Origin: a virus | Lineage: Duplodnaviria; Caudoviricetes | DNA length: 64,000 bases | Direction: 5' to 3' (one strand) | IMG/VR virus record: IMGVR_UViG_3300022876_000002 | Part shown: positions 24,691-48,003 of the stretch, one piece after another | Layout of the letters: every line of letters begins with the position of its first letter | Position numbering within the stretch: the stretch's first letter is position 1 | Program-made: the position numbers and the translations under genes | The notes under the pieces: model-generated | What the model was told of the DNA's origin: nothing | The model's input: only the letters and a program-made list of their open reading frames with translations | The model's database searches: none

Positions 24691-25428
24691 TTACTCATAG
24701 TCGTAGAGACTATGTTCAATAGGCAGTAACTTGATAGCAGGAGCCATCATCAACAGGCTAGCCATCATCCAGTCCTTGTGCGGACCAGCAAAGGTCTCGT
24801 TAGGACGTACCAATACATCAGGAATAACGAAGTTGGTTTCAGGGATTGGATTCCCCATGAACGTTTCAGACAGTGCAGTAAACGACTCATCCAACAACAG
24901 GTTGTAGCGGAACACGTAGTTGTACTGGCCATAGAACTTGGCATCGTGTGCACTAGGATCGGAATAGATCGCTTGTACCTTAACCAGGCCCTTCAGACCA
25001 TAACGAATACACTCGACTAGTTCGGCAGTTTGCTCTGCATCGAACTGGTACGGGAAAGTGTTTACATACAGACGGACTTCCTTGATGTCCATCGGCTTGT
25101 CAGTCAGACCTTCGATGTCAATGATCCGAGCAATCATGGTCTTGATCAACTTGGTGGGGTAGTACATCCCAGTACCCCAATGCTCCAAGCTACGTTGTGC
25201 GAAAATAGCCTTAAAGCGTTCTTCGTCGATACCGATGTGTGTATAGTTGTAAGTATCGAACTTACGATCGCGGTAGTTACGCTCGATGTACAGAGCCCAC
25301 AACCGATCCCCTTCTGCTTTACGCTGATCAGGATCGGTGATGTGGTCGGTCATCAAGCACTGTAACAGCCCACGACGGTAATCAAAGAACGCTTCTGCGT
25401 CAGCATAGACGTCTAATACACGATTCAT
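24691..25428 (-). CDS. Hypothetical protein, possibly a degenerate HAD-like fold (245 aa)
   Basis: N-terminal VYADAEAFFDYR loosely resembles HAD motif I; the function call is weak. Confidence 0.55.
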   Translation of the reverse strand: MNRVLDVYADAEAFFDYRRGLLQCLMTDHITDPDQRKAEGDRLWALYIERNYRDRKFDTYNYTHIGIDEERFKAIFAQRSLEHWGTGMYYPTKLIKTMIARIIDIEGLTDKPMDIKEVRLYVNTFPYQFDAEQTAELVECIRYGLKGLVKVQAIYSDPSAHDAKFYGQYNYVFRYNLLLDESFTALSETFMGNPIPETNFVIPDVLVRPNETFAGPHKDWMMASLLMMAPAIKLLPIEHSLYDYE

Positions 25429-33633: not shown

Positions 33634-34809
33634 ATGGAACCAAACTTCAACGAGCTCAACAATACCGACCATGAAGACGCCCCGCACTTGTTCGAGACGT
33701 TGTCGCCAGAGTATACGGATATCCCAGACCCAGAGCACTTCGACACCATCTGTGAAGGCGCCCTGGACACCGTTAAGGGCATGGAGTCCATGTCCACCAC
33801 CTACACCAAGGCTCAGTCCTATCTGTTCGCCTGCATGTCCGCAGCAGACCATATCGACTACAAGCAACAACGTGCTGGTATGGAAGGCGGGTTCTTCTCC
33901 GCCATTGGTGATGGCCTGGGCGCTGCATGGGACTTCATCAAGAAAATGTTCACTGCTGTGTGGCGCGCGTTCTTCGGCGGTGGGGATAACACCGTAGAAA
34001 GCAAGGTCGAAAAAGCCGAGAAGAAAGTCAAAAAGGACAAGGAGGACGTACAAGAAGACGTCAAGCCTGGTAAGTCCGAGGAAGTTGTTGAGAAACAACG
34101 TAAGAAGGCTAAGGATAAAGCTAACAAGGTTAAGAAAGACCCGAAAGCTTCTTCCAGTGACAAAGCCATTGCCGACCAGATGATCAAGAAGATCGACGAA
34201 GGTAATGTCAAGTCTACTAAGCAGAAAGAAGACGATCTTAAAGTAATTAAGGAAAACTACTTCAAGATCAGCAAGGATACTCGCGAGACCATCATCAAGA
34301 ACGTTGGTGAAGCAGAGTCCCTGCGTCGTAAGTACAAAGAGTACGTCGAGAAAGACCGTTCCAGCGAAGTTACTTCTGATCGTTGGAAGAAATGCTACGC
34401 AACGTTCAAGTCTAGCGTATTTGGTAAACTGTTGGATCACCCGATTAACCAAATCGTTAAGGTCGACGCTATCAAGAACCTTGGTCAGGGCGTGGATGTA
34501 TTCAGCCAACTGGAACAAGTGCTCTCTGGCCACCGTGGTGTAGCTGAGACTATCAGCAATCAGAAAGCTACTGTTGAGTCGGAGATCAAGGAACTGGAAG
34601 AAGCCATTCGTAAGAAAGGCAAGGGTTCTAACAGTGGTGAAGTCCATGGTGAGAAATACAACACCAAAGACCAAGTCCGTGAGCGCCTGGCTTCGGCTAA
34701 AGTGGTACTGGGTATCATCAACGCCACTGCTGGCTACCAGACTAAAGCCGTGCAATCGGTAGAACGTCTGAGCGCTAACGTGAAAGAGCACTTCTGCCCG
34801 TTCATGTAA
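33634..34809 (+). CDS. Head (inner body/ejection-type) protein with a protease-cleaved propeptide, phiKZ gp162/163-like family (391 aa)
   Basis: Acidic N-terminus with GME-S and GME-G sites, then an amphipathic helix (FFSAIGDGLGAAWDFIKKMFTAVWRAFFG) and a Lys/Glu-rich body. Confidence 0.65.
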   Translation: MEPNFNELNNTDHEDAPHLFETLSPEYTDIPDPEHFDTICEGALDTVKGMESMSTTYTKAQSYLFACMSAADHIDYKQQRAGMEGGFFSAIGDGLGAAWDFIKKMFTAVWRAFFGGGDNTVESKVEKAEKKVKKDKEDVQEDVKPGKSEEVVEKQRKKAKDKANKVKKDPKASSSDKAIADQMIKKIDEGNVKSTKQKEDDLKVIKENYFKISKDTRETIIKNVGEAESLRRKYKEYVEKDRSSEVTSDRWKKCYATFKSSVFGKLLDHPINQIVKVDAIKNLGQGVDVFSQLEQVLSGHRGVAETISNQKATVESEIKELEEAIRKKGKGSNSGEVHGEKYNTKDQVRERLASAKVVLGIINATAGYQTKAVQSVERLSANVKEHFCPFM

Positions 34810-34820
34810 TAACGCAAACA

Positions 34821-34862
34821 TAACCCCTACCCCAGCCTGGTAAGGGCTTGGGGTAGGGGTTA
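34821..34862. terminator. Bidirectional terminator hairpin
   Basis: taacccctacccc...ggggtaggggtta between convergent genes. Confidence 0.8.
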
Positions 34863-34869
34863 TAACTGG

Positions 34870-36513
34870 TTACGCGTCGGATTCATCCTTACCAGCCGGT
34901 TCATCATCCACTACCGGAGTAGGGATATCACTTACCTTGATCTGACGGATGCTACCGATTGGGATACCGTCTTTGAGGTCGGCTACCACACGGTTGGCAT
35001 ACGGACGCAGGTATGGAGACTTGATACCGAACATGTAAGCGTAGATGATCTCTACCATACGGTCGGTGTGTACGTCGAATACCTTCTTACGGAAGTTCAG
35101 TTCATCCTTGACCAGAGGGATGGCTGGAGAACCATCTTCAGGGTACTCGTATACACGCCAGCTGTTGAGGTCGAGACCGATGTTACCACCATGCTCGTGC
35201 AAGGCCGTCATAACGTCGTTAGCGACCTTTTCCACGTAACCCTGTACATCGCGTGGGCTGATCTGGTAAAGCTCCTTCATGAAGTGGCTAGAGGCCAACA
35301 GACGGGTCTTAACAACCTTGTCGAATGCTTCCTCGGCATAAGCACAGTTTGGCAGCGCTTTGAGGGACTCTTCGATCAGTTGGTCAACCCACTGGCTAAC
35401 CTTGGTCAGCTTACGGACAGCAACCAGTACATCGTTACCCAGGTGCGACCACTCAGCCAGATCGATTGGACGGTCACCCAGGCTGTACTCACCGTTGTCA
35501 GGCAGACGACCAGGTACACGATCCAGACCGATAACCAAACGGGTAAGTGTGTCGTTACCTTTGAACACCAGCATCAGAGCATGGTCGCGTACGGTAACGT
35601 GTGGGGCAATACGCTCAGCTTGCTTGGTAGCAATGGCGATGAAGCGATCGAAACGACCATTGAAGGCAGCGATTACGTCGTCAGTACGTTTGAAGTCACC
35701 ATTGAGCATGTCATCCCACTTGTGGGTTGGCTCGATTGGACGAAGCCAGCTCAGAGGCCACTCACGAGAAAGCTGAGTGATCATTTTCTTGTTACCGCGA
35801 GCGATCATGCCTGGAGAGTTGTTATCCTCACGGCACCAGTCACCAGCAGTGCGTTGACGAACTGGATTGGTAAGACCGTCGTACCACATGCTGATAAAGA
35901 AGTCGAAACTGTCAGCGCGCAATACGTAAGTCATCGGGCTGATGTGATCACGCTCGAAACGGATGTAGGTAACTTCGGTGTCACCTTGGAAACCGTTGTA
36001 GGTCATCACACAACCCATTGCCGGCACACCTGGATTGACCGAGGTGAAGAAGTTATGCAGGGCAATGGAGACCTTGGTGTAGTCGTGCTGCTTCTCGCCG
36101 TGGATGTTTCGTTGCTCGGGGAAGTCTTCTGGGCCGTTGTCCCGTGTCAGATTAACCTTAAAACTAATGTCGGGAGCGAACGGGTAGTAGTGGTTGAAAC
36201 TACCAAAGTCCATGTTGCTCACGAAGTACGGGTCAACATACTCGTATACATTACCCGCCCATTCGGATGCAGGTTTACCAAGCACATCGTCAAGTTTGGA
36301 TACCCCCACTTCCTGAACTGGTTCTGGACCTTGTTCGGTAAACAGTAAAGTGTCACCCGGTTCTACAGCACCAGAATGATCAGTAGTTCCGACATAGCTA
36401 GGAATCCCGCCGTAGCCTTCATTAATGATCGGCCGGGTGTTCACATCCAAGGCTTGTACAAACGGATCGTCCTTGGACAACAGGACATCGTTACGGCCAG
36501 TGGTATCACTCAT
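34870..36513 (-). CDS. Large hypothetical protein (547 aa)
   Basis: aagga RBS before ATG 36513 (MSDTTG), overlapping the upstream stop; no motif recognised. Confidence 0.7.
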   Translation of the reverse strand: MSDTTGRNDVLLSKDDPFVQALDVNTRPIINEGYGGIPSYVGTTDHSGAVEPGDTLLFTEQGPEPVQEVGVSKLDDVLGKPASEWAGNVYEYVDPYFVSNMDFGSFNHYYPFAPDISFKVNLTRDNGPEDFPEQRNIHGEKQHDYTKVSIALHNFFTSVNPGVPAMGCVMTYNGFQGDTEVTYIRFERDHISPMTYVLRADSFDFFISMWYDGLTNPVRQRTAGDWCREDNNSPGMIARGNKKMITQLSREWPLSWLRPIEPTHKWDDMLNGDFKRTDDVIAAFNGRFDRFIAIATKQAERIAPHVTVRDHALMLVFKGNDTLTRLVIGLDRVPGRLPDNGEYSLGDRPIDLAEWSHLGNDVLVAVRKLTKVSQWVDQLIEESLKALPNCAYAEEAFDKVVKTRLLASSHFMKELYQISPRDVQGYVEKVANDVMTALHEHGGNIGLDLNSWRVYEYPEDGSPAIPLVKDELNFRKKVFDVHTDRMVEIIYAYMFGIKSPYLRPYANRVVADLKDGIPIGSIRQIKVSDIPTPVVDDEPAGKDESDA

Positions 36514-36880
36514 CGTCTTTTTCCTTAGCAACGGTAAACGGGGTTGGGTACAAAGTATATTTTACATCAGGTTCTTTATGCAGCGGGCGAATAACGATGT
36601 TCTTGCTATCGTCTCGATTGGCAATAACAGCCAAAGCCATTTCAGCCGGATCCCATTCATTCAGTGCGGCGATATCTTCTTGACTAATCCAGTACTCAAA
36701 GAAACCACGGTGCTCGGTATGTACGGTAAACATCATGCCTCGGAGTGGTGTCCCTAACACACTATGTACCGCCATCTTGGCGGACATGGTTTTAGTCGCA
36801 CCAATACCTTGACTAAATAAAGCATGCCCAAACAGAATACGGAAGTTATCCATTTCCAACTGATCAGGATATACCATCAA
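36506..36880 (-). CDS. Hypothetical protein (124 aa)
   Basis: gaggt RBS; coupled to the downstream gene. Confidence 0.65.
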   Translation of the reverse strand: MMVYPDQLEMDNFRILFGHALFSQGIGATKTMSAKMAVHSVLGTPLRGMMFTVHTEHRGFFEYWISQEDIAALNEWDPAEMALAVIANRDDSKNIVIRPLHKEPDVKYTLYPTPFTVAKEKDDE

Positions 36881-36901
36881 TACAACCTCTAAAAAGGACT
36901 T

Positions 36902-37738
36902 GTGGTTATTATGGACTCTAAACTATACAATATGTCTACGATTAATAAATACACTGCACGCCCAGGTCTGGCAATGCCGCTTCACACCAGAGTAAAAATC
37001 CCTGGTGGTTGGACCACTTTAGGTTTACTGAAACTCAATGACTTGGTAGTTACTCCGGATGGCAACTACGTACCCGTTACTGGTATTTACCCCCAGGGGG
37101 TCACCGATAACTACAAGTTCCTGTTCGAAGACGGCAGGGAAGCCGAGTCTCATCCACTACACCAGTGGGCGGTTTACGAAGACAACCAGCTTACCCCCAT
37201 GGTCACTACCACCTTGGATATCTTGAACCACTTTAGTGACTTCGAGTACAGTATTCCTCTGGTAGGTCGCCTTGGTGTACAGCAAGCTTGCTTGAGTGAC
37301 CAAGAGCTAATAGATATAGCTCACCAGTTATTAACTGGCATAATCACGTTCCCCAAAGTGGAAGAGCTGCATTACGAAGACCGGTTAACGATCGCCCTAA
37401 CAATGATCGAATACCAGGATGCCACCCACACTGACAATGGCGTCTTGATCTCCACTACGTCAGACACAGCCGCATACACCCTGAGAGACCTGATCTGGTC
37501 ATTAGGTGGGATTGTGTATATGGAAGCACAGGACCCATATATCCTGCGTGTGCTGCAACGAGATATCCGTAACCCAGAGAACCTGGTTAGTGATACCATA
37601 CATCAGCGCACCAAGTCACTGAAACTGACAGGCATTACCAGAGACGACCCGGTAGAAACTGTGTGCATTAGCATCGGTGACGACCAAAAGCTTTATGTGA
37701 TTGGTAGTTACCTAGTCACGCATAACGGCGAATGCTAA
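36902..37738 (+). CDS. Stand-alone intein-like Hint protein with class-3 WCT signature and a degenerate LAGLIDADG remnant
   Basis: Block A AMPLHTRVKIPGGWTTLG..L.D.V.TPDG; block B DGREAESHPLHQW; block F VCISI; block G LVTHN, then GEC-stop; true start may be 36902, 36911 or 36932. Confidence 0.85.
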   Translation: MVIMDSKLYNMSTINKYTARPGLAMPLHTRVKIPGGWTTLGLLKLNDLVVTPDGNYVPVTGIYPQGVTDNYKFLFEDGREAESHPLHQWAVYEDNQLTPMVTTTLDILNHFSDFEYSIPLVGRLGVQQACLSDQELIDIAHQLLTGIITFPKVEELHYEDRLTIALTMIEYQDATHTDNGVLISTTSDTAAYTLRDLIWSLGGIVYMEAQDPYILRVLQRDIRNPENLVSDTIHQRTKSLKLTGITRDDPVETVCISIGDDQKLYVIGSYLVTHNGEC

Positions 37739-37759
37739 ACAAAAATAAACCATTAGTAG

Positions 37760-37791
37760 CTTACCCTCTAGCCCTAGGGCTAGAGGGTAAG
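37760..37791. terminator. Bidirectional terminator palindrome
   Basis: cttaccctctagccctagggctagagggtaag is a perfect palindrome between convergent genes. Confidence 0.8.
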
Positions 37792-37793
37792 TA

Positions 37794-37952
37794 TTACGGG
37801 TATTTCTCAAAAGCACGTACCAAGTTTTCGAGGATCATGATTTGGTTATCTACCAAGTACACTAACTCGTCTTCCGGATGCAATTGCTCTTTCTGTCTAA
37901 CAGCGCCCTCCAGTAATTGGAGAGCTTCCTGCTTCGTCATTTTAACGCGCAT
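37794..37952 (-). CDS. Small helical protein (52 aa), absent from the ORF track
   Basis: ggagag RBS; MRVKMTKQEALQLLEGAVRQKEQLHPEDELVYLVDNQIMILENLVRAFEKYP*. Confidence 0.65.
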   Translation of the reverse strand: MRVKMTKQEALQLLEGAVRQKEQLHPEDELVYLVDNQIMILENLVRAFEKYP

Positions 37953-37970
37953 GGCGCTCTCCCATCCTGG

Positions 37971-38321
37971 TTAGGGTGATGGCTCGTTGGTAAGGTCTAC
38001 AGACACACAACCAGTTGTATTGATTGTTAACCCGCCGTCTTGGGAAGTCAGTGCATTTGCAGTGCGACTCAACACGACGTGCTTAGAAACAAATCTGTAA
38101 GCACCTTTAATCGACGGACTAAGCTGCATAGCCTCTTCAGTCAATTCCTGGTAACGTTTGTACATTGCCAGACCAATAGCCCGTTCGTTGGAACCGACAG
38201 CAGCATTAAGATGAAGATCACGGTAATCCAGGTATTCTTCCATTTTGGCGTCAGCTTGCTTAAGCAGATCGGTGATCTTCTTCCGCAAAGCCTTATCGGC
38301 AAAATCAACTACAACACCCAT
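37971..38321 (-). CDS. Small protein with N-terminal motif MGVVVDF (116 aa)
   Basis: Start at ATG 38321 via TAATG overlap with the upstream stop. Confidence 0.7.
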   Translation of the reverse strand: MGVVVDFADKALRKKITDLLKQADAKMEEYLDYRDLHLNAAVGSNERAIGLAMYKRYQELTEEAMQLSPSIKGAYRFVSKHVVLSRTANALTSQDGGLTINTTGCVSVDLTNEPSP

Positions 38322-38515
38322 TACAACTGCCAATGCGCTTCCAGCGCTTCGATCAACTCTTCAAAACCATCGCACGGATCAGTGAGCTGCTCTTCGCCAT
38401 CCCAGGCAACCCACTTGTCAGGGATCGGATCGTAACCCATATCGAGGGAAACGTGGTTCTCACGAGAGTATTGTTGGATTGCGGCAAAACGATCTTCCAA
38501 GGATTTCTTAACCAT
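38321..38515 (-). CDS. Small hypothetical protein (64 aa)
   Basis: TAATG-coupled on both sides. Confidence 0.7.
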   Translation of the reverse strand: MVKKSLEDRFAAIQQYSRENHVSLDMGYDPIPDKWVAWDGEEQLTDPCDGFEELIEALEAHWQL

Positions 38516-38838
38516 TACTCGTTCTCCAGTTCAGCCAAGTAGGAATGGATGGCGGTATTATTGGGAGTCTTTTTGATACCATCCCAATCTACCTTTTTGG
38601 TAACAGGTTGCGTAGGGTTACCGTGGTAGTCCAACTGGGCTTCTACCAAGTAACGGGCAAACGACGTACTAACTTCGTTCTTACGTTGCTGAGCATAAGC
38701 CAGCCCGTACTTGGCGCAGTTGTCGTTGTAGAAGTCACCACCTTCCTGGAAGCGGCGGTACCACGAGGACTTCTCGTCAAACAACTCACGCTTACGCGCC
38801 AGCGCTTCCTGTTGTTTCTGTTCTTTACTTTTACGCAT
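38515..38838 (-). CDS. Small hypothetical protein (107 aa)
   Basis: TAATG-coupled. Confidence 0.7.
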   Translation of the reverse strand: MRKSKEQKQQEALARKRELFDEKSSWYRRFQEGGDFYNDNCAKYGLAYAQQRKNEVSTSFARYLVEAQLDYHGNPTQPVTKKVDWDGIKKTPNNTAIHSYLAELENE

Positions 38839-39032
38839 TATTTACGCCCCATAGCTTCGAGAGCCAAAGCAAAACGTTCATTACTAAGACGACCGTACTC
38901 ATCATGCAAACGCTGACGTTCAACCGGATCTTTCTCTTGACGGTACTTAGCCAAGAGCTCAGCCTGCTGGTTCTCCAGCTTACGCATTTCAGCACGGAAA
39001 TTGTCGCCGGTAAATTGCAGGACCTTACCCAT
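38838..39032 (-). CDS. Small helical-hairpin protein with motif MGKVLQF (64 aa)
   Basis: TGATG-coupled; coiled-coil-like body. Confidence 0.7.
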   Translation of the reverse strand: MGKVLQFTGDNFRAEMRKLENQQAELLAKYRQEKDPVERQRLHDEYGRLSNERFALALEAMGRK

Positions 39033-39370
39033 CAGGTAATAACCTTTTCCTTGATGTGCTGAATAACCTCAGCCAGGCTGTTGTGTTGAGTAATTACCCG
39101 ATCACCAAGGAAAGCATTTTTGCGCCCCATCATGCATTGCCAAGTAACGTCACACTTGCTGAACACGCGAATGGTAACCCCATGGGATTCCATAACCTGG
39201 CAGTTAGGGCGTACTTGATGATCTACCTGCACGCCAACCCCGTGCTTAAAGCACTCGATTATCAGATCATTGAGTTCCGGGTCGTGCTTTTTCAGCTCTT
39301 CCAAAACTTTCTGATGCGCTTCAATCCAACGCTCTACGTAGCTGATGTGGTTACGGATTTCAGGACCCAT
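39032..39370 (-). CDS. Small hypothetical protein (112 aa)
   Basis: TAATG-coupled. Confidence 0.7.
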   Translation of the reverse strand: MGPEIRNHISYVERWIEAHQKVLEELKKHDPELNDLIIECFKHGVGVQVDHQVRPNCQVMESHGVTIRVFSKCDVTWQCMMGRKNAFLGDRVITQHNSLAEVIQHIKEKVIT

Positions 39371-39579
39371 TACTTAATCCCCAATTGACTTTTGATTTCA
39401 CCGATCTCGATTTTGATTTGGCCGCCACGAATAGCCGCCTGCTCACGCGTGTGCACATCAGGCGACGTACGCAGGATACGATCCCAGTAAGCAACCGTAC
39501 GCTCGAGTTCTTCAATACGGCTAAGCGCTACTACATTACGCTTCCTACGAAAAGCATCCATCTGGACAACTTGGCCCAT
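39370..39579 (-). CDS. Small helical-hairpin protein with motif MGQVVQMDAFRRK (69 aa)
   Basis: gaggt RBS before ATG 39579. Confidence 0.72.
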   Translation of the reverse strand: MGQVVQMDAFRRKRNVVALSRIEELERTVAYWDRILRTSPDVHTREQAAIRGGQIKIEIGEIKSQLGIK

Positions 39580-39586
39580 ACACACC

Positions 39587-39889
39587 TCAAATGTTGGTAT
39601 AAGGGATCTCGTTGTCGTAATCCCGTTTGAACTTTGCACCCAAGTCTTCGAAAGCTTGGAGCATCCCTTCGTTTTCTTCTACAGCAGTACTGACAATAGA
39701 CTGGAACTCATCGGAGATAACCGCGTCCCCTTGCATAGAGCGCCAGCAACCCAAAGCATACTTGACTGAAATTATCCGGGTCTCTACCAGATCCGGTAAA
39801 AGGAATCCTGGTAGCCCGCCGTACTCTGCCAAGATACGGTTGATTTCACGCCTGGCCTTCGCCGTGTAAATACTCAGTACGTTACCCAT
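39587..39889 (-). CDS. Small protein with motif MGNVLSI (100 aa)
   Basis: Overlaps the upstream stop (ATGGGTAA). Confidence 0.7.
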   Translation of the reverse strand: MGNVLSIYTAKARREINRILAEYGGLPGFLLPDLVETRIISVKYALGCWRSMQGDAVISDEFQSIVSTAVEENEGMLQAFEDLGAKFKRDYDNEIPYTNI

Positions 39890-40136
39890 GACGGTTCATC
39901 CACGGACAAGTAGGAGAGATAAATGCTTTAGGGAACTTAGTCCAGAAAGCATCACGAATTTGATTAGCCTTGTTTACACAAACAGTACCTTGTTTATGCA
40001 ACTCAGCTGCGAGCTCAGGGTCCGATGTCATAGTCGACTGGACGTAATACGAATTACCAGAAATAGTTAGCGCCATCACTTGGCTAACCATACGGGCACG
40101 TTCAAGAGACTCGTTAATATCAATTACCGGGTACAT
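39882..40136 (-). CDS. Small protein with motif MYPVIDI (84 aa)
   Basis: taaggag RBS before ATG 40136. Confidence 0.7.
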   Translation of the reverse strand: MYPVIDINESLERARMVSQVMALTISGNSYYVQSTMTSDPELAAELHKQGTVCVNKANQIRDAFWTKFPKAFISPTCPWMNRHG

Positions 40137-40159
40137 ACTGCTACTCCTTAGCTGTATAC

Positions 40160-40185
40160 AAAAAATTGAGGACCCGAAGGTCCCC
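40160..40185 (-). terminator. Intrinsic terminator (TTCG loop) inside the small-gene array
   Basis: Minus strand: ggggacc-ttcg-ggtcctc-aattttttg. Confidence 0.65.
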
Positions 40186-40192
40186 AAGCTTA

Positions 40193-40516
40193 CTACAGAC
40201 CGCGCCTGGCTTTCACATCATCGTGATGAGCCATTAACTCGCGGAACTCCTCGCGCAAGGCATCGTTAATAGCCCTACCCTCAGCAACCACCTTTTGAGC
40301 TTCTTCTTGAGCTTCGGCGTACTGAGGGGACAAAGCACCAAATGCTTTCAAAGCCGCACAAGACTTCTTAGCAGCTTCGATTTGGCGTTCAAGGATCTCG
40401 TTACGCACCCTTGTGGACTTTTCACGGTAGGCTCGTTGTGCATCCCTTACCGTGATCATTTCGTTCTTGGCACTGTGTAGCGAAAGATCAGTACCGATGT
40501 TAACTACTTTACCCAT
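40193..40516 (-). CDS. Small coiled-coil protein with motif MGKVVNI (107 aa)
   Basis: gaggt RBS; long amphipathic helices. Confidence 0.72.
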   Translation of the reverse strand: MGKVVNIGTDLSLHSAKNEMITVRDAQRAYREKSTRVRNEILERQIEAAKKSCAALKAFGALSPQYAEAQEEAQKVVAEGRAINDALREEFRELMAHHDDVKARRGL

Positions 40517-40530
40517 TACGATTACCTCGA

Positions 40531-40791
40531 TTACATAGCAGCCAGTTGTTGACGGAGTTCAGCCAGTTTACGACGTTCGTCATTGGCCATGGACAGCGCA
40601 ATGAACTTATCGTCCGCACGGGTAAACTCTTTGCTGAGATCCATGAAAGTCTGGATCTGATGCTCAACCCTTTCGATATCGCAGTTCAGTTCATACACTG
40701 CGATAACCCGATCACGGCGTGCTACGCGTGCGGCTTCTTTAGCCATAGCCATTGCATTTACACGATCAGCAAAATTGATTACGTTGGTCAT
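40531..40791 (-). CDS. Small coiled-coil protein with motif MTNVINF (86 aa)
   Basis: First gene after the promoter at 40847. Confidence 0.72.
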   Translation of the reverse strand: MTNVINFADRVNAMAMAKEAARVARRDRVIAVYELNCDIERVEHQIQTFMDLSKEFTRADDKFIALSMANDERRKLAELRQQLAAM

Positions 40792-40846
40792 TACCTTACC
40801 CTCAAGTGATTAGTAGATCAAATGATCTACTGCTACATTCATCCAG

Positions 40847-40854
40847 GTAATATA
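40847..40854 (-). promoter_or_regulatory. Early promoter TATATTAC
   Basis: Exact consensus (tcttggaccTATATTAC), intergenic, upstream of ATG 40791. Confidence 0.75.
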
Positions 40855-40874
40855 GGTCCAAGACTTTCCAGAAA

Positions 40875-41135
40875 TTAACCGGTCGTAATTCTGGCCATTA
40901 CGATTAACGGTTGTTTGTATTGACTGTTGTACAACGCTATAGCTTTTTTGATGTTACTCATTATCTTGCTAGCCTCCTGTATTAAGAAAGTGCGTTTACC
41001 TGGACGCCACCAAGGGCAATCAGCTGCTTCCTTAGCTAATCTAAGGTATTCAAACTGTGCCTCAGCAATATCCTTTAATAGCACTGTACGGTGTTCTAAC
41101 GTATACCTGTTCCTGAGTGATACAACTGAGCTCAC
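40875..41135 (-). CDS. Small protein with motif MSSVVSL (86 aa)
   Basis: GTG start with gggggt RBS. Confidence 0.65.
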   Translation of the reverse strand: MSSVVSLRNRYTLEHRTVLLKDIAEAQFEYLRLAKEAADCPWWRPGKRTFLIQEASKIMSNIKKAIALYNSQYKQPLIVMARITTG

Positions 41136-41286
41136 TATAAAACCCCCTACCCCGACAAAATTAGTCTAAAGAATTATAACACGGTTTTTAAATATTACTT
41201 TTATTTTTTAACCCTAATAACCAATTCTATTTTTAAGCAATGTTATGCCCAAACCCTTAAGGCGACCAGCAATCAGGAAAACCACT

Positions 41287-41853
41287 ATGGCCATCCCCAA
41301 CCAACAATTGGTGCTGGATAAATTTATCGAAGTAAACGTCGAACGCTACGCCGATAAACCAGCACTCGTGCAAATGTTTCAGACACTTACCCTCGGTGAT
41401 ATTGTTATCACTAACGGTAAGCGTGTCACAGGACCACAGGGGCAAGTTGCTGTTTCGTATGACATCGAAAAGGCCGGTGTATTCACCAGTAAGAACCAAA
41501 TGTTCTACGCTGCTGATGTCGCCATCCATGATGTCATGCAATGGACAGCAAATACCCCTGTCGCGGTAGACGATCTCCCGAAACAAACGGAAGGTTTATA
41601 CCTCGACACGGAAGGTAAAGCACACATCGTAGTAATGAAGGGCAAGAAAGAGGCAGAACACGTCCTAGACGTATTCATGGCCGGTGCTCTTTATGAAATT
41701 GGTAATGACGACACCGAAGTAAGCCCAGAGACCTTTGCTGTAACGGTTGACGGCCTTAATATCATTGGTGCTATCGAGACCACTGAAAGTCTCTATGACG
41801 ATATCCCTCGTTACAACGGCCAGTTCCGCTACGACGGTACCATCCGCTACTAA
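41287..41853 (+). CDS. Tail/baseplate-associated protein (188 aa)
   Basis: Start at ATG 41287 (agga RBS); C-terminal RYNGQFRYDGTIRY motif like baseplate/tail proteins; leads the fibre operon. Confidence 0.6.
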   Translation: MAIPNQQLVLDKFIEVNVERYADKPALVQMFQTLTLGDIVITNGKRVTGPQGQVAVSYDIEKAGVFTSKNQMFYAADVAIHDVMQWTANTPVAVDDLPKQTEGLYLDTEGKAHIVVMKGKKEAEHVLDVFMAGALYEIGNDDTEVSPETFAVTVDGLNIIGAIETTESLYDDIPRYNGQFRYDGTIRY

Positions 41854-41869
41854 TCCAAGGAGACCTTAA

Positions 41870-44800
41870 ATGGCCTTTAATGACGAAAACGTAGTCCCAG
41901 GCGACCTGCCGGCTATCGTCGAAGAAGCAAAATGGGAAGAGCACTTACCCGCCATTATCACCGACGTTATCGTCCGTGGTGGCGACGACGGTAAGGGCGC
42001 TTCCAACTTCCACGCTCGTGCACTCGATGCTCGTACCCGTTGGCTGAAAGAGCAACTGGAAGCACTGTCGCTCAATGGTCTGGTCCTGAAAGGTTACCTG
42101 CCTGACGAAGACACCCTGCTGGCCATTCCTACTGAAGATCTGCAGATTGGTACCTGCTACTTCGTAGACTTCGCTCTGCGTGCGTGGAACGGTACTGAGT
42201 GGGCTTCCTCGGGTTCCCTGCGCGGTGAGCGCGGCCTGAACCTCTTGGGTGTATGGCCTAATGGCGTGCCGCTGCCAGAAGTAGAAGATAACTTCGTAGG
42301 CGACGCCTACATTTGGAATAACGACCTGTGGATCCTGGTCCCACAACCTAACCGTTGGGAAGGCCTGGGTATCCGTGGTCCAGAAGGTGCTTCGGCATAC
42401 GAAGTCTGGTTGACTGTCCCCGGCAACGAGGGCAAGACCCAGGCTCAATACCTGAAGTCCCTGGAAGGTAAAGACGCCTACCAAGTAGCCGTGCGTAACG
42501 GCTTTGTTGGTACCGAGACCGAATGGTTGGCCAGCATTCGTGCTAAGTCCAACTACGAGATCTGGCTGCAACAAGGTAACGTAGGCACTGAGTCGGACTT
42601 CTTGGCTACCCTGAAATCTACCGAGCCGGGCCCTAAGGGCGACAGCATCAAAGGTGACAAAGGTGACCCAGGTGAAGACGGTCGCAGCGTAGCTGTTAAA
42701 GGCACTGTTGCTACCGAAGCTGAACTGGCCGGCATCGCAGATCCTGTTGACCAGGACGCTTACGTTGCCCAAGACACCAACCACCTGTGGATGTTCATCC
42801 AACCAGGCCCGGGCTGGACTGACCTTGGTAAGTTCAACGGTAAGGATGGCATCGTTGGTAAAGACGGTCGTAACCTGATCCTCACCGGTGCGGTTGACAC
42901 CTTTGCTGATCTCCCAGGTGATCCAGAAGACCAAGACATCTACTCGGTACGTGATACCAACACTATCTACGGCTTTATTGTAGACAAGTGGGAAGAACTG
43001 GGTAGCTTCAAAGGGACCGACGGCACCAATGGCACTAATGGTACCAACGGCACTAACGGTATCAACATCGTTCTGACCGGTACCGTGGCTACCATGGAAG
43101 AACTGCCAGAAGTGGCAGACGACCAGGAAGTTTACTCGGTAACCACCACCAACAGTCTGTACGGTCGCATCAAAGGTGTCTGGTCTTTCCTGGGCAAGTT
43201 CCAGGGTGAGAAAGGTGAACCAGGTGAGTCCATCAAGGGCGACAAAGGTGATCCAGGTGAAGACGCCAAGTACGTCACCCTGAAAGGTACTGTTGAAACC
43301 CTGGCTGATCTGGCACTGATTGCCGATCCACAGGATCAACAGTCCTACGCCGTACGCGAAGAGAACGCCATCTACACCCGTATCAACGGTGCGTGGGAAA
43401 AGATCGGTAAGTTCAAGGGCGAAGACGGTATCGTAGGTAAAGATGGTACCAACATTATCCTCAAGGATGTGGTGGCTACCTTCGAAGACCTGCCTGGTAA
43501 CCCTGTAGACCAGGACGTCTATGGTGTCCGTGACGAGAACGCGGTGTATGCCTTCGTCAAGGGCGCATGGGCCAACATGGGTGTCTTCAAAGGTGCCGAT
43601 GGTGAGAACGGCACCGATGGTACCGATGGTAAAGACGGCAAGTCCGTTGAGATCATTGAAGTACTCACTCCAGAGAACCCAACCCCTCCGGTAGCTGATG
43701 AATCCAACCGTGGTAAGTCCTATGTGGACCAAGACGGTCAAATGTGGATCAACGTCAACGACGAGTGGAAGAAAGCTGGTGCGCTGTCCGTTGGTGAAAA
43801 GGGTGCTATGGGCCCTGCCCTGAAACCACGTGGTACTGTTGCTACGGTAGCAGACCTGCCTCCACTTGGAGAAGTGGAAGAAGGTGACATGTGGTTTACT
43901 GCTGACACCAAACTGGCTTACGTCAAGGTGGATGACCAGTGGTCTGATCCGATCGACATGATTGGTGAAGAAGGTCCGGAAGGTAAACAAGGTACCCCTG
44001 GTGCCCTGATGCCTATCCTGGGTCTCTACAACACCATGGGTGAACTGACTGCTGCACACCCAACCGGTGTTCGTGGTGACGCTTACCTGATCGTTACTGC
44101 CGAAGGCCGTGACCTGGTTATCTGGAACGTTGACACCAACTCCTGGCAGAACACTGGTCCGGCCGGTCTGCGTGGTGAGAAAGGTGACACCGGTGAAGGT
44201 CTTCCAGGTAAGCAAGGTGATAAGGGTGAGAAAGGTAGTCAGTGGCTGATTCTCCCAGAGGGCCAGGACGAACCATCCAACGCCTTCAATGGTCGTGTGG
44301 GTGACTGGGCTGTTACCAAGAACCTGAAGGTCTGGTACAAAACTGCTGCTTCTGGCTGGGTGTTCTGGAACACCTTGGTGGCTGGTGACGTTAACTCGCC
44401 GCTGTTGTCGCAAGGTAAGGTGTTGCGTTATGGTTCTGAGTGGGTTCGCCCAGACGTCGAAGAAGTAGAAGGGCCTGTGGCTGGTGGTCTGTATGCTCGC
44501 CAATTGAAAGAAGGTTCTGAAGACGAAACCGAGTGGGTACTGATTGCCTTCCCTGAGTTCCCAGATGTACCAACCGCTGACGGTAAGCAATACGTCCGTG
44601 TGTGGGAGATCGGTGCTGATGAACCGACCTACAAGGAAATCGTTTTCCCTGAGTCGATTGCTGACCTGACGTTGAAAGACGACAAGCAGTATGTGCGTAT
44701 TTTCCCAGTTGGTTCGCAGAAACCAGAATGGCGTGAAATCGTGTTCCCTACTGGGGTAGCCGATCCAGCTGATCCAGAAGCCAACGCCACTTACTTGCGT

Positions 44801-45205
44801 AAGCCAAGCGATAAAACCTGGGTCAAGTTCCTGCTGCCTCCCGCCACTGCTGGTCTGCAGTTTGTGCAAATCGCTGGTGAGTGGAAGTCCTTCGACCGCT
44901 ACGACTTGCTGATCAAAACGGCCAACGCTACGCTGACCATCGATCCTGCAAAGGAACAGTTCGTGAAACTGGATAACTCCGGTGCCACGGCCAAAGTCGT
45001 TAGCATCAACAACCACGGTGCCACTCGTGGCATGTGCGTGGTGTTGGAAGTAGTGGGTGTGGCTGGTGCAATCAGCTACGGTGGTACCAACATCAAGTGG
45101 GATCAGAACACCATCCCTAGCTTGACTGGTACCAAGAACCTCATCCTGTTCACCTGGGATGGCGAAGTCTGGATCGGTTCCAAAGGTCCTGGTCTGCTCA
45201 ACTAA
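41870..45205 (+). CDS. Long tail fibre with collagen-like linkers and repeated beta modules, phiKZ gp146-like (1111 aa)
   Basis: aaggag RBS; G-X-Y runs (GPKGDSIKGDKGDPG, GTNGTNGTNG); six or more GTVxT..LP..DQDxY modules; DGKQYVR repeats near the C-terminus. Confidence 0.85.
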   Translation: MAFNDENVVPGDLPAIVEEAKWEEHLPAIITDVIVRGGDDGKGASNFHARALDARTRWLKEQLEALSLNGLVLKGYLPDEDTLLAIPTEDLQIGTCYFVDFALRAWNGTEWASSGSLRGERGLNLLGVWPNGVPLPEVEDNFVGDAYIWNNDLWILVPQPNRWEGLGIRGPEGASAYEVWLTVPGNEGKTQAQYLKSLEGKDAYQVAVRNGFVGTETEWLASIRAKSNYEIWLQQGNVGTESDFLATLKSTEPGPKGDSIKGDKGDPGEDGRSVAVKGTVATEAELAGIADPVDQDAYVAQDTNHLWMFIQPGPGWTDLGKFNGKDGIVGKDGRNLILTGAVDTFADLPGDPEDQDIYSVRDTNTIYGFIVDKWEELGSFKGTDGTNGTNGTNGTNGINIVLTGTVATMEELPEVADDQEVYSVTTTNSLYGRIKGVWSFLGKFQGEKGEPGESIKGDKGDPGEDAKYVTLKGTVETLADLALIADPQDQQSYAVREENAIYTRINGAWEKIGKFKGEDGIVGKDGTNIILKDVVATFEDLPGNPVDQDVYGVRDENAVYAFVKGAWANMGVFKGADGENGTDGTDGKDGKSVEIIEVLTPENPTPPVADESNRGKSYVDQDGQMWINVNDEWKKAGALSVGEKGAMGPALKPRGTVATVADLPPLGEVEEGDMWFTADTKLAYVKVDDQWSDPIDMIGEEGPEGKQGTPGALMPILGLYNTMGELTAAHPTGVRGDAYLIVTAEGRDLVIWNVDTNSWQNTGPAGLRGEKGDTGEGLPGKQGDKGEKGSQWLILPEGQDEPSNAFNGRVGDWAVTKNLKVWYKTAASGWVFWNTLVAGDVNSPLLSQGKVLRYGSEWVRPDVEEVEGPVAGGLYARQLKEGSEDETEWVLIAFPEFPDVPTADGKQYVRVWEIGADEPTYKEIVFPESIADLTLKDDKQYVRIFPVGSQKPEWREIVFPTGVADPADPEANATYLRKPSDKTWVKFLLPPATAGLQFVQIAGEWKSFDRYDLLIKTANATLTIDPAKEQFVKLDNSGATAKVVSINNHGATRGMCVVLEVVGVAGAISYGGTNIKWDQNTIPSLTGTKNLILFTWDGEVWIGSKGPGLLN

Positions 45206-45254
45206 GTAGGTTGGGGGTAGTAACCCTACCCCCGCCTTAACACAAGAGGTTTCT

Positions 45255-45911
45255 ATGACCATTGTAACTGCAAACACCCGCCTGATCTGCGTAGCGACCG
45301 GTGAGTACCCGGTGTTCCTGGGGCAGATGGGTTCCCGTTTGGTTGGTTCGTTCGGTGAACAAACCGAATCTGATCTGTTGGAAGAGTTCGGCTACCATGT
45401 GGTGGTTGACACTCCAGTTCCAGCAGGTGACGTTGTCATCGAGGGTGCCCCTGAACTGGTAGATGACGAATGGCGTCGTACTTACATCGTGCGTGCCTTC
45501 GACGAGATGGAAGTAAGTGCGCAGCTATCCAGCGAGCGCGCCCAACACCTGTCCAACATTGAACAGTTCCGGATTACCAATTTCGAAAAAGGGTTTCCTT
45601 GCCTGTTCAACGGCGGTACTGATCTTTACTACGTTCAGATTCGTAATAAGGATCTGACTTTCATTACTGCTCTGCGTGTACTGGCTAAGGAAGCACTCGA
45701 AGAAGCTACTCCGTTCAGTGTGGACTTCCGTGTATACGAAGACGTAGGGGTAACCCTGGATGCGGAAGAAGTAGTGCGCGTGTCGAACCTGGCTAACATC
45801 CATGTTCAAGAAGGCATGCGCAAGTACTGGGACCTGAAAGACGCTACTAAAGCAGCGACCAGTAAAGAAGCATTCCCGGAGATCCCTGCCGAGATGTTTG
45901 AACTGAAATAG
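45255..45911 (+). CDS. Tail fibre assembly/chaperone-like protein (218 aa)
   Basis: Follows the fibre gene; C-terminal helical segment ending in an acidic P..F tail, like fibre-assembly proteins. Confidence 0.6.
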   Translation: MTIVTANTRLICVATGEYPVFLGQMGSRLVGSFGEQTESDLLEEFGYHVVVDTPVPAGDVVIEGAPELVDDEWRRTYIVRAFDEMEVSAQLSSERAQHLSNIEQFRITNFEKGFPCLFNGGTDLYYVQIRNKDLTFITALRVLAKEALEEATPFSVDFRVYEDVGVTLDAEEVVRVSNLANIHVQEGMRKYWDLKDATKAATSKEAFPEIPAEMFELK

Positions 45912-45932
45912 CCCATCACTCCGTACCAAAAA

Positions 45933-45966
45933 TAAGGAGCTAGGTGGGTGCCCACCTAGCTCCTTA
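45933..45966. terminator. Hairpin/terminator
   Basis: Perfect 16-bp stem taaggagctaggtggg-tg-cccacctagctcctta. Confidence 0.65.
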
Positions 45967-45978
45967 GAGGGTTTTTGT

Positions 45979-48003
45979 ATGATTGAAGCATTACTACCAC
46001 GGAAAAGTGATATCTACCCTTGGCCGGGTGATCAGTATTTAGGCGAAGTTACCAGTGTTAATTTCATTGATGGTGTCGCTTTGGCATCAATGTTGGGATT
46101 AACTAGCGGACAGGTCTCTAACAGTGACGCAGGCTGGTTGAAGTTTAAAAAGCAAGAAGGCGAAACCCTCCTCGTTGCTAAGAAAACTTTACGCTACCGT
46201 TTGTCATGGAACCAATTAGAAGCAGCGCTGATCATGTACGGCGAACGTTTGATTAGCGTTCAGGGTAACACCTACAAAGTACGGTTGTTGCGCGGGGCCG
46301 AGAAAGACCCCACCGACTGGAACACGTCCATGTCACAGAACAACCCTCCAGAAGCAGCACCTTCTGAGTGGAACCGTTTAATCCACCGGGTAGCTGTAGG
46401 TAACCCTGGGTTAGCACCGAACTTTGTGGCATTCCCTTTGTCAGACTTGAGCATTGCAGTGTCCGCCACCGGGCGCATGACCCTGTGCCAAGAAGCCCTT
46501 GTCGAGAACGCTGGTAACGCGGTTGCTCGTGGCAATACCAACTTATCCGTATTTAACTACGTGCTTAAGTCCGATGGGGCTGCCTCAGCTGCACAAGATC
46601 ATTACGGCTGGCGCCCGGTGTTAGAGCTGGTAGGTCCTACCAAGTACTACCCTGGTTCTGGACCTGGTAGCAAGACGTTGGCATTTGGTAATGAACAGTT
46701 AGGCTTCTTCGGTGAAGTAGCTGCTTCGGAGATGGTGACCAATGCCCAATTGAAAACTCACTTGGGTCATGCGACAGGTACTACTCGTGCGGACCAAGGG
46801 TGGTTAAAGTTCTTCTATAAAGGTAAGGTTATCTTTATTGGGAAAAACACTTACTGTTCTGGGCTGACTTGGAACAACCTGTATGCGGCTGGCGGTATTT
46901 ACGGGACCAACGACAACGGCAAGTACCCAGCAGCTACTCCAGTAAATCAGTACAAACCACTGACCTGGAATAGCGAGAACAAAGTATTCAAGTTGATCCC
47001 TCGCGCCACGACTATGTCGGCTGACCCGTTTGAAAACGGTGACCCAGTTGCTTCGGATAACGAGTACTCTGATCTGCTGGGTCGGTTGATGGTGAACGTT
47101 GCGTTCCAGGGAAGTGGTCAGTGGGGACGGTATACCGCGGCACAGCTTAACATGAACATTGTTCATATGGGCCCTGGTACTCGCGGCTCTGCTCCTACCT
47201 TCGCGGCAATTCGTGGTTATACTGGTGGTACTAACTACACCAGTTTGCTGAGCCTTACTAAGGCAGATGCTAGCGGTTACAACCAACACTTCCGGATGAC
47301 CTTAGTCGTCGAGGGGGACCCTAACGTTGAGCCCATCTCAAGTAACTGGAATGATTCCTTTACTTTTGATCCAGGTAGCAGCGGGGTTTCTCTTAGCGGG
47401 AAAGCTAACGTTACTTCCGGCGTCATTCGAGAAGAGCCGCCATCCATTGGTGATGTAACGGTGTCCTTGCCGCTTGGTAACTTGGACAACATTACCTGGG
47501 AGTTTGATCAACCGCTTGATTTGTCGGCACGTGACTGGACTCTTGAATGGTCTTCTCGTAACGAGGCTAGTGTGCTGGCAGGCTACGTAGCGGATACTGC
47601 CTTGTTATCTACGGCAGGTTTAGAAGCTGTTTGCGCACGCTATGGTAACTCTGGGTATGGCGAACGCTTCCAGTTAGGTGGCAACATGGCTACGGCAGCA
47701 GTAGTCTGGAACAGTCGGTTTACTAAATCAGCTGTTAACGGGGTACTGAAAAACTACGCCTTGGTTTCGGTTGCTGGACAGATCTCTCTGTACGTCGATG
47801 GCGTGAAAGAGATATTAGCCAACGGAACAAGTTCGAACTACACTGCCGCCTCGTTTGCTTCTAACGCTTCCCTGACTGCAGTTAAGTATATTAGACTGGG
47901 TGGTTACGGTGCAAACGCCATTACCATGCCAGCTAAACGTGGTAAAGCACGGTTCAGCCTGTTTGCTCGTTATAGTGACAACTACACCCCAACCCCTTTC
48001 TAG
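45979..48003 (+). CDS. Tail-tip/fibre protein with two gp131-like domains and a C-terminal LamG/concanavalin-like domain (674 aa)
   Basis: Repeated GPG..L..G....GFFGEV / WLKF / GWRPVLEL domain; C-terminal WTLEW...YALVSVAGQISLYVDGVK...IRLGG lectin-like pattern. Confidence 0.7.
   Translation: MIEALLPRKSDIYPWPGDQYLGEVTSVNFIDGVALASMLGLTSGQVSNSDAGWLKFKKQEGETLLVAKKTLRYRLSWNQLEAALIMYGERLISVQGNTYKVRLLRGAEKDPTDWNTSMSQNNPPEAAPSEWNRLIHRVAVGNPGLAPNFVAFPLSDLSIAVSATGRMTLCQEALVENAGNAVARGNTNLSVFNYVLKSDGAASAAQDHYGWRPVLELVGPTKYYPGSGPGSKTLAFGNEQLGFFGEVAASEMVTNAQLKTHLGHATGTTRADQGWLKFFYKGKVIFIGKNTYCSGLTWNNLYAAGGIYGTNDNGKYPAATPVNQYKPLTWNSENKVFKLIPRATTMSADPFENGDPVASDNEYSDLLGRLMVNVAFQGSGQWGRYTAAQLNMNIVHMGPGTRGSAPTFAAIRGYTGGTNYTSLLSLTKADASGYNQHFRMTLVVEGDPNVEPISSNWNDSFTFDPGSSGVSLSGKANVTSGVIREEPPSIGDVTVSLPLGNLDNITWEFDQPLDLSARDWTLEWSSRNEASVLAGYVADTALLSTAGLEAVCARYGNSGYGERFQLGGNMATAAVVWNSRFTKSAVNGVLKNYALVSVAGQISLYVDGVKEILANGTSSNYTAASFASNASLTAVKYIRLGGYGANAITMPAKRGKARFSLFARYSDNYTPTPF

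Follow-up and report, generated by a model that had tools for sequence, protein, structure and literature searches.

The 64,000-nucleotide stretch of viral DNA analyzed here (IMG/VR record IMGVR_UViG_3300022876_000002; Duplodnaviria, Caudoviricetes; hereafter the window) carries, on the minus strand between positions 37794 and 41135, an operon-like array of 12 small, closely packed genes, and the products of 8 of the 12 begin M-x-x-V-[VIL]-polar-[FILM]. The enrichment of this N-terminal tag in the array is far beyond chance, whatever motif definition is used, and the tag, a free and conserved peptide fixed to the terminus of otherwise unrelated proteins, has by analogy with known systems the anatomy of a docking motif or degron. 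We consider it slightly more probable than not that some common partner reads the tag, and we tentatively propose for this role, as a possibility rather than a probability, ClpX or a different host AAA+ protease.

The source of the window is a phiKZ/EL-type jumbo phage, as indicated by gene content and closest relatives. The relatives compared here are an IMG/VR fragment that is 98% identical to the window (G001), a complete 238-kb relative with 39-53% protein identity to the window (G002), five metagenomic contigs of ~240 kb with arrays, in which the family E protein described below is 63-71% identical to that of the window (L025-L029), and further, more distant arrays (L031-L034). The only cultured relatives are Pseudomonas phage EL and its kin and the Erwinia phages RisingSun and Joad, at 25-35% protein identity.

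An earlier note on this DNA had listed 12 minus-strand open reading frames and eight tagged N-termini, and all of them are present where it placed them. Listed from the high-coordinate end, the tagged genes are gene A (40875-41135; 86 amino acids (aa), GTG start, MSSVVSL; orthologues MSAQILPL and MSGQIVPL), gene B (40531-40791; 86 aa, MTNVINF; orthologues MTKVINL, MSNVISF, MCKVTGI and MSDNILRF), the lineage-specific gene H (40193-40516; 107 aa, MGKVVNI), gene C (39882-40136; 84 aa, MYPVIDI; orthologues MFPVSDV and MQRVVNV), which is the weakest case, gene D (39587-39889; 100 aa, MGNVLSI; orthologues MGRVADF, MGKVLDY, MGKVLDI and MTAKVLDF), gene E (39370-39579; 69 aa, MGQVVQM), which belongs to the phage EL gp160 family, gene F1 (38838-39032; 64 aa, MGKVLQF) and gene G (37971-38321; 116 aa, MGVVVDF; orthologues MGVITVDF, MGVVIDF and MGIVIDF), which occupies a polymorphic slot. 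Gene H is also found in G001, whereas in L025-L029 an untagged gene of 137 aa takes its place; the slot of gene F1 (39032) is occupied in relatives by MGKVVNLDDYR-type genes, denoted F2.

Enrichment of the tag in the array

Starts were called from codon log-odds and a ribosome-binding-site score, a procedure blind to the motif, which reproduced seven of the eight tagged starts and picked a later start for gene A. The GTG of gene A at 41135 lies at the same place as the ATG of its orthologues beginning MSAQILPL and MSGQIVPL, and independent database gene calls on five related contigs give the same starts. A motif-enrichment test, which the earlier note had named as a check on its observation, upheld it: with blind starts, the motif is present in 7 of the 12 array genes and in 1 of the 57 other called genes of the window (Fisher p = 5e-6), and a binomial calculation from N-terminal composition gives P(≥8 of 12) = 1e-16. 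Because the motif had been defined after looking, a motif-agnostic statistic was also chosen, the mean pairwise BLOSUM62 score of residues 2-7 across the 12 array genes, with a null of random 12-gene sets from 490 genes of the window phage, G002 and EL (20,000 draws). The array scored 1.09 against a null of -4.57 ± 0.94, and its value was reached by 0 of the 20,000 random sets, or by 16 of 20,000 when blind starts were used. The best-scoring run of 12 consecutive genes was the array itself in the window and the syntenic counterpart of the array in G002. Outside the array, the sole strict-motif gene of the window lies at 24691-25428 on the minus strand (MNRVLDV, 245 aa); the chance expectation is ~0.3-0.6 per 57 genes.

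A constant peptide on unrelated bodies

We picture the tag as what would be a free N-terminal short linear motif, composed of Met, a small residue, Val, a branched hydrophobic residue, a polar residue and a hydrophobic residue, which several families extend with an aromatic residue and a basic cluster. Beyond this motif the bodies differ. An all-against-all blastp comparison of the array proteins gave no match with E < 0.1, and when family profiles were compared by hhalign, E versus F2 and E versus G each reached 91% probability with a matched region confined to the first 27-33 residues; once the first 12 residues were removed, every pair fell to 21% probability or less, so that the shared part is the tag alone. 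Similarly, the hidden Markov model (HMM) of family E reaches F2-type, MGTVTSIAEFRKKK-type and other tagged genes solely via the N-terminus. The shared module thus measures ~7 residues, or ~12-30 in a subset, with an aromatic residue at position 10 and a basic cluster. The bodies are 64-116 aa long and of different architectures, that of gene G having a non-helical tail.

AlphaFold2 (AF2) models built from family alignments place the tag outside the predicted fold. The gene E model (predicted local distance difference test score, pLDDT, 88) consists of a coil at residues 1-6 followed by helices at 7-14, 16-38 and 42-66, and that of gene B (pLDDT 90) of a coil at residues 1-6 followed by helices at 7-55 and 59-85; in both, the first ten residues are the least confident (pLDDT 75 for gene E and 64 for gene B). 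In these two models, the tag is outside the folded core, like a docking peptide. The description of the bodies in the earlier note as helical hairpins agrees with the models of genes E and B and does not extend to genes D, C and G, which by sequence are not simple hairpins. A Foldseek search of the gene E model against the PDB returned generic helical hairpins only (E ≥ 0.5), a feature search of the ESM Atlas returned only unnamed clusters with scores of at most 0.84, and Pfam and PHROGs contained no match to any of the eight tagged proteins.

Three familiar classes were considered for the tagged proteins, and none fits well. A paralogous multigene family is not apparent, as neither blastp nor hhalign detects homology along the protein bodies. 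A ribbon-helix-helix protein is disfavored by the lack of a Pfam match, by models that consist of a coil and two long helices (23-49 residues) and by hydrophobic residues that are adjacent and not alternating. A signal peptide or lipoprotein signal does not fit, since the tag has three hydrophobic residues followed by charged helices and no core of at least 10 hydrophobic residues.

The tag persists over long evolutionary distances. Among 1.8 billion cluster representatives, family E has 34 members, every match starts from residue 1 in query and hit alike, and the N-terminal consensus is M-G-[QE]-V-[VI]-x-M-x-D-[WFY]-[RK]-K-R-[RK]. Within it, G2, V4, M7 and aromatic-10 carry 3.3-4.5 bits, equal to the invariant R45/E46 of the second helix, and V4 is present in 32 of the 34 representatives. 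The register, counted from the free N-terminus, is nearly constant, as would suit a reader that recognizes the chain end. EL gp160 belongs to the same family (HMM E = 1e-10, full-length, with the conserved R-E-Q-A-x-I helix). In addition, family B retains V-[IT]-x-[FLI] down to 25% identity (MCKVTGI and MSDNILRF) and family G retains MG-[VI]-V-[VI]-D-F. The check on homologues suggested earlier therefore favors the tag, which families keep across distant relatives, except for family C, where it is eroded (MDSVKVE, MVPDTKV and MEVPNVQ). At L034:1060-1284, a protein begins MGAVTG and then reads N-V-V-S-L-D-D-H-R-R-K-K, with the extended tag six residues inward, a rare break of the fixed register.

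The number of tagged genes varies among relatives: two of the 209 called genes in EL (gp160 and gp162, both in the syntenic array), 2 of 250 by the strict motif in G002, with two or three more by a loose one, and six to eight in the clade of the window. That EL has just two argues that the expansion occurred in the window's clade, and on present sequence comparisons the tag is old and its spread recent.

Several observations indicate that selection acts on the peptide. The Val-4 codons vary among the eight genes, as the earlier note had reported (GTT, GTA, GTA, GTA, GTA, GTT, GTC and GTA), and GTA makes up 31% of Val codons genome-wide, which leaves only a mild bias at this position. Among gene E orthologues, all four Gly codons are used at Gly-2, and synonymous variation is also seen at Val-4 and Val-5. 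One-residue register shifts in relatives (MSAQILPL, MGVITVDF and MTAKVLDF) keep the peptide and not the codon position. The exact register claimed in the earlier note thus holds inside the window and is relaxed by one residue in these relatives. Synonymous variation and register shifts together point to selection on the peptide, and judged from these alignments the constraint is protein-level.

Common descent is the alternative that bears most directly on these comparisons. The tagged genes could have arisen by tandem duplication and fast divergence from an ancestor resembling EL gp160, with an N-terminus that is structural, as a hairpin cap or dimer strand, and has no external reader. The tandem arrangement of the tagged genes on one strand fits this origin, as do the similarity of E, F2 and G over their first residues, the N-terminal reach of the family E HMM and an expansion within a clade whose relative EL has only two tagged genes; moreover, V4, M7 and aromatic-10 of family E, together with the short helix at 7-14, could pack on the hairpin. 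However, past the first 12 residues no pair is similar, the lengths and architectures of the bodies differ, and residues 1-6 are an unpacked, lowest-confidence coil in both AF2 models. The slot of gene G provides a further argument. In G001 it holds an unrelated 107-aa gene (73284-73607, MGMVKAVLNG...) that again has an MG-x-V start, so that one body has been exchanged for another and the beginning is the same. Metagenome assemblies break at 37933-37962 and 38388-38417, flanking gene G, with one loose end leading into other sequence, and the slot (window 37933-38417) is a polymorphic cassette. Taken together, we regard descent without a reader as an unlikely explanation, although one that keeps real weight.

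Candidate readers of the tag

What we infer beyond the peptide itself, namely a single reader, its identity as ClpX and the consequences of binding, can be set out as a proposal. Six to eight unrelated early proteins would engage one host AAA+ protease through the tag, and the most likely reader would be ClpXP, through the N-terminal zinc-binding domain and/or the pore of ClpX. In the simplest outcome, the tagged proteins would be handled as one class and removed jointly after early infection; alternatively, they may compete for the protease and occupy it; and in a less likely version, they would tether to the protease whatever their helical bodies bind. ClpX is known to recognize its substrates by motifs at their N or C terminus, and its N-domain is a binding site for some of the substrates and for adaptor tails (PMC5415555). 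The XB peptide of SspB binds the zinc-binding domain at any chain position, and XB tethering suffices to degrade a bound target (PMC12373786).

A complex was predicted for two copies of Pseudomonas aeruginosa ClpX residues 1-62, zinc and the 69-aa gene E product, together with three controls. The complex scored 0.45, 0.45 and 0.43 versus 0.02 for the best control; contacts agreed to at least 88%, and the partner pLDDT was 85 or higher, which the tool grades as weak support. When the tool was calibrated, 51 of 78 solved complexes and 2 of 108 mismatches attained its mark; in the range up to 0.60, just 5 of the 78 solved complexes did so, together with all 4 passing mismatches. From these calibration counts, a likelihood ratio of ~3 would lift ClpX from an improbable candidate to one that is possible but still doubtful. 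In the proposal of the earlier note, a constant peptide docks on one host machine, with the ClpX N-domain as the best guess. Its first part has stood up, since a constant peptide sits on unrelated bodies, appears to be selected at the protein level and lies outside the fold in two models; for its second part, the modeling points faintly to the ClpX N-domain.

Known systems offer both likenesses and differences. The XB peptide of SspB (PDB 2DS8, cited in PMC12373786) is likewise a short V-V-type hydrophobic peptide outside a folded domain; through it the protein is held on ClpX, where a single docking site serves different bearers. In contrast, XB is C-terminal, and the phage tag stands at the extreme N-terminus, at a near-fixed distance from the free end. 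N-terminal ClpXP recognition motifs are found on lambda O, Dps and other proteins (Flynn et al. 2003, as cited in PMC5415555). Like the phage tag, these motifs place the signal at the free N-terminus, on a phage protein too, and show a hydrophobic-polar pattern; all eight tags begin at residue 1-2. The known motifs are single, however, and not borne by clustered unrelated proteins. EL gp160, a hypothetical protein, is a true homologue of gene E with the same tag (MSNVIDM...W-R) in a syntenic array, although EL has two tagged genes and the window has eight. CLIPPERs, engineered degraders that recruit ClpXP (PMC12373786), combine a constant protease anchor with a variable bait, as the earlier note proposed for the array, and show that tethering alone can cause degradation; they are synthetic, and a bait function of the phage bodies is hypothetical. 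The corresponding reading, in which the array would be a natural bifunctional degrader set with a constant anchor on ClpXP or another host AAA+ protease and eight bodies each seizing a different host protein, seems to us quite improbable.

Several points weigh against the proposal that ClpX or a related protease reads the tag. The score of the ClpX/gene E complex falls in the band where passes are more often wrong than right, the prediction comes with no reported interface, so that the contact may be elsewhere than at the tag, and P. aeruginosa ClpX is a stand-in for that of the host, the phage being known from soil metagenomes. A run of two branched hydrophobic residues, a polar residue and a hydrophobic one is a generic pattern that recurs in other docking peptides; Lon degrons and the GroES mobile loop have a similar hydrophobic-polar-hydrophobic pattern, and the likeness of the tag to known signals therefore does not discriminate among readers. 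XB is carried on a long flexible linker, whereas the phage tag is ~6 residues from the hairpin, with helices from residue 7. The N-motif consensus of lambda O and Dps reads polar-T/hydrophobic-hydrophobic-basic-hydrophobic, and its basic residue is missing from the tag, which in every one of the eight proteins has N, D, Q or S at position 6. Because the linker feature of the first class and the consensus of the second are both lacking, the tag is assigned to neither the XB nor the lambda O class; by analogy, it would work like a terminal docking tag or degron. In addition, E, F2 and G have ~30 N-terminal residues in common, which plain common descent would explain too. Finally, 19 'metatranscriptome' runs carry the stretch, on contigs that reach 135 kb, and window positions 34000-46000 are found in runs X1, X2, X3 and X5 on contigs of 46-136 kb with even depth; contigs this long and depth this even suggest that the RNA-labeled soil libraries probably contain phage DNA, which makes them unusable as evidence of expression.

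The tag could instead address a different partner. In the host, this might be Lon or some other chaperone; among phage machines, it might be a GroEL-like chaperonin, a part of the nucleus or a part of the apparatus for early infection. The evidence for a free, conserved, modular peptide does not name its reader, and a partner specific to this phage lineage would match the confinement of the tag to it. A chaperonin is encoded in G002, gp146 of EL carries a GroEL annotation, and G-x-V-V-x-hydrophobic resembles the GroES mobile-loop contact, a likeness by analogy. On the other hand, small helical hairpins are unlikely chaperonin clients, and we know of no linear import signal for phage nuclei, which counts against a partner in the phage nucleus. 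We hold such a partner to be possible but, on balance, rather unlikely. The least probable alternative, that selection acts on codons 2-7 of highly expressed early genes to make initiation or the first steps of elongation efficient, could explain a pattern fixed relative to the start codon, the use of GTA in five and GTG in none of the eight Val-4 codons and the translational coupling of many array genes, but it is disfavored by the synonymous variation at codons 2, 4 and 5 with the amino acid unchanged, by the register shifts that preserve the peptide and not the codon position, by the four array genes and other phage genes, structural ones included, that lack the pattern, and by conservation that reaches the aromatic residue at position 10 and the basic cluster.

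Searches for a phage-encoded member of the SspB (PF04386) or proteasome/HslV (PF00227) families gave no match in G001 or G002. EL gp086 (L036:47597-48064) is annotated 'putative bacterial stringent starvation protein', and its layout, a folded part of ~110 aa, a Pro/Glu/Lys-rich linker and an F-K-V-I-E-G-G-K-D end, recalls SspB with its ClpX-binding tail; sequence comparison of gp086 with Pfam and the PDB gave no match, and both G001 and G002 lack a counterpart.

Organization of the array and its neighborhood

The four untagged genes of the array, all on the minus strand, lie at 39032-39370 (112 aa, MGPEIRN), 38515-38838 (107 aa, MRKSKEQ), 38321-38515 (64 aa, MVKKSLE) and 37794-37952 (52 aa, MRVKMTK), the latter being the last gene of the array. 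The gene at 38515-38838 matches phrog_38094 and is the only array gene with a match in Pfam or PHROGs. The TAATG/TGATG coupling described earlier is present as five such overlaps, and one further overlap of 8 nucleotides (nt) was seen.

Related arrays contain additional arrangements. An extra 126-aa gene without counterpart in the window is present at L026:6568-6948, L027:6565-6945 and L028:1598-1978. Its start, M-[ILS]-K-V-I-G (MIKVIGIAALIL...), fits the motif expression, but it continues into a signal-peptide-like stretch (…AALILSSFAVQA), and we rejected it as a tagged protein in favor of a secreted or lipoprotein-type N-terminus. A partial tandem duplication occurs at L025:6210-6955, where two neighboring called genes begin with identical 26 residues (MAFELRNNTSAVVHQIEALQKVLEEL) and the second copy enters a frame with an internal (V)GKVVNLDDYR start; this duplication stems either from recent rearrangement or from faulty assembly.

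A promoter-like element, TATATTAC, is located between genes A and B (40847-40854, minus strand). The element that the earlier note had read as an early promoter near the head of the array is present, after the first gene, and is conserved: it is kept as CTATATTAC in six relatives (L025, L026, L027, L029 and L031 among them) with variable flanks. We take its promoter class, which is putative, from the phiKZ literature. The window contains four copies (11350, 24082, 40847 and 55452), each followed 36-63 nt further on, in the same orientation, by a called gene start; the gene for a 2719-aa tail fibre/lysin stands behind one of these copies, and the element may therefore not be restricted to early genes. 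An intrinsic-terminator-like hairpin with a T run lies after gene H, the third gene (40166-40187, minus strand). At the array end, a perfect palindrome with a 13-bp stem is followed by a T-rich run (37761-37790, minus strand); assemblies break here, and from its sequence this palindrome is a probable terminator.

Adjoining the array, a 278-aa gene at 36902-37738 on the plus strand matches solely the N-terminal parts of terminase, primase and DnaC-like loader PHROGs, a pattern that, as far as such matches suggest, is that of a free-standing Hint/intein-like protein; a 274-aa counterpart stands beside the array in L025-L029. Elsewhere, the window encodes a 1455-aa virion-RNA-polymerase beta-like protein and collagen-like fibres in addition to the tail fibre/lysin. 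The runs that bear the sequence come from soil or rhizosphere in every case. Comparison of the array and family E with cultured phages by megablast, blastn and tblastn gave no match, and in RisingSun an equivalent array is missing at the syntenic position.

Implications for jumbo phage biology

Terminal peptides that are read by one machine, such as degrons, adaptor tails and clamp-binding motifs, are well known. One N-terminal tag that is borne by six to eight unrelated early proteins within a single phage, deeply conserved and expanded in one lineage, has no precedent in the libraries and literature searched; these gave no description of the tag, family E or EL gp160, and papers on phiKZ early-protein motifs or on ClpX in jumbo phages yielded nothing that bears on it. 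Because EL is in culture and carries tagged gp160 and gp162, the question of the reader is testable at the bench in P. aeruginosa. EL also encodes a nuclear shell protein and PhuZ, which indicates that the lineage of the window is nucleus-forming. If a host protease reads the tag, the array would illustrate how proteolysis can be timed or steered in infection by a nucleus-forming jumbo phage, and the tag would be a short, portable one for Pseudomonas-like hosts. Were the array in fact a degrader set, the phage would turn host proteolysis against several targets simultaneously at an early stage of infection.

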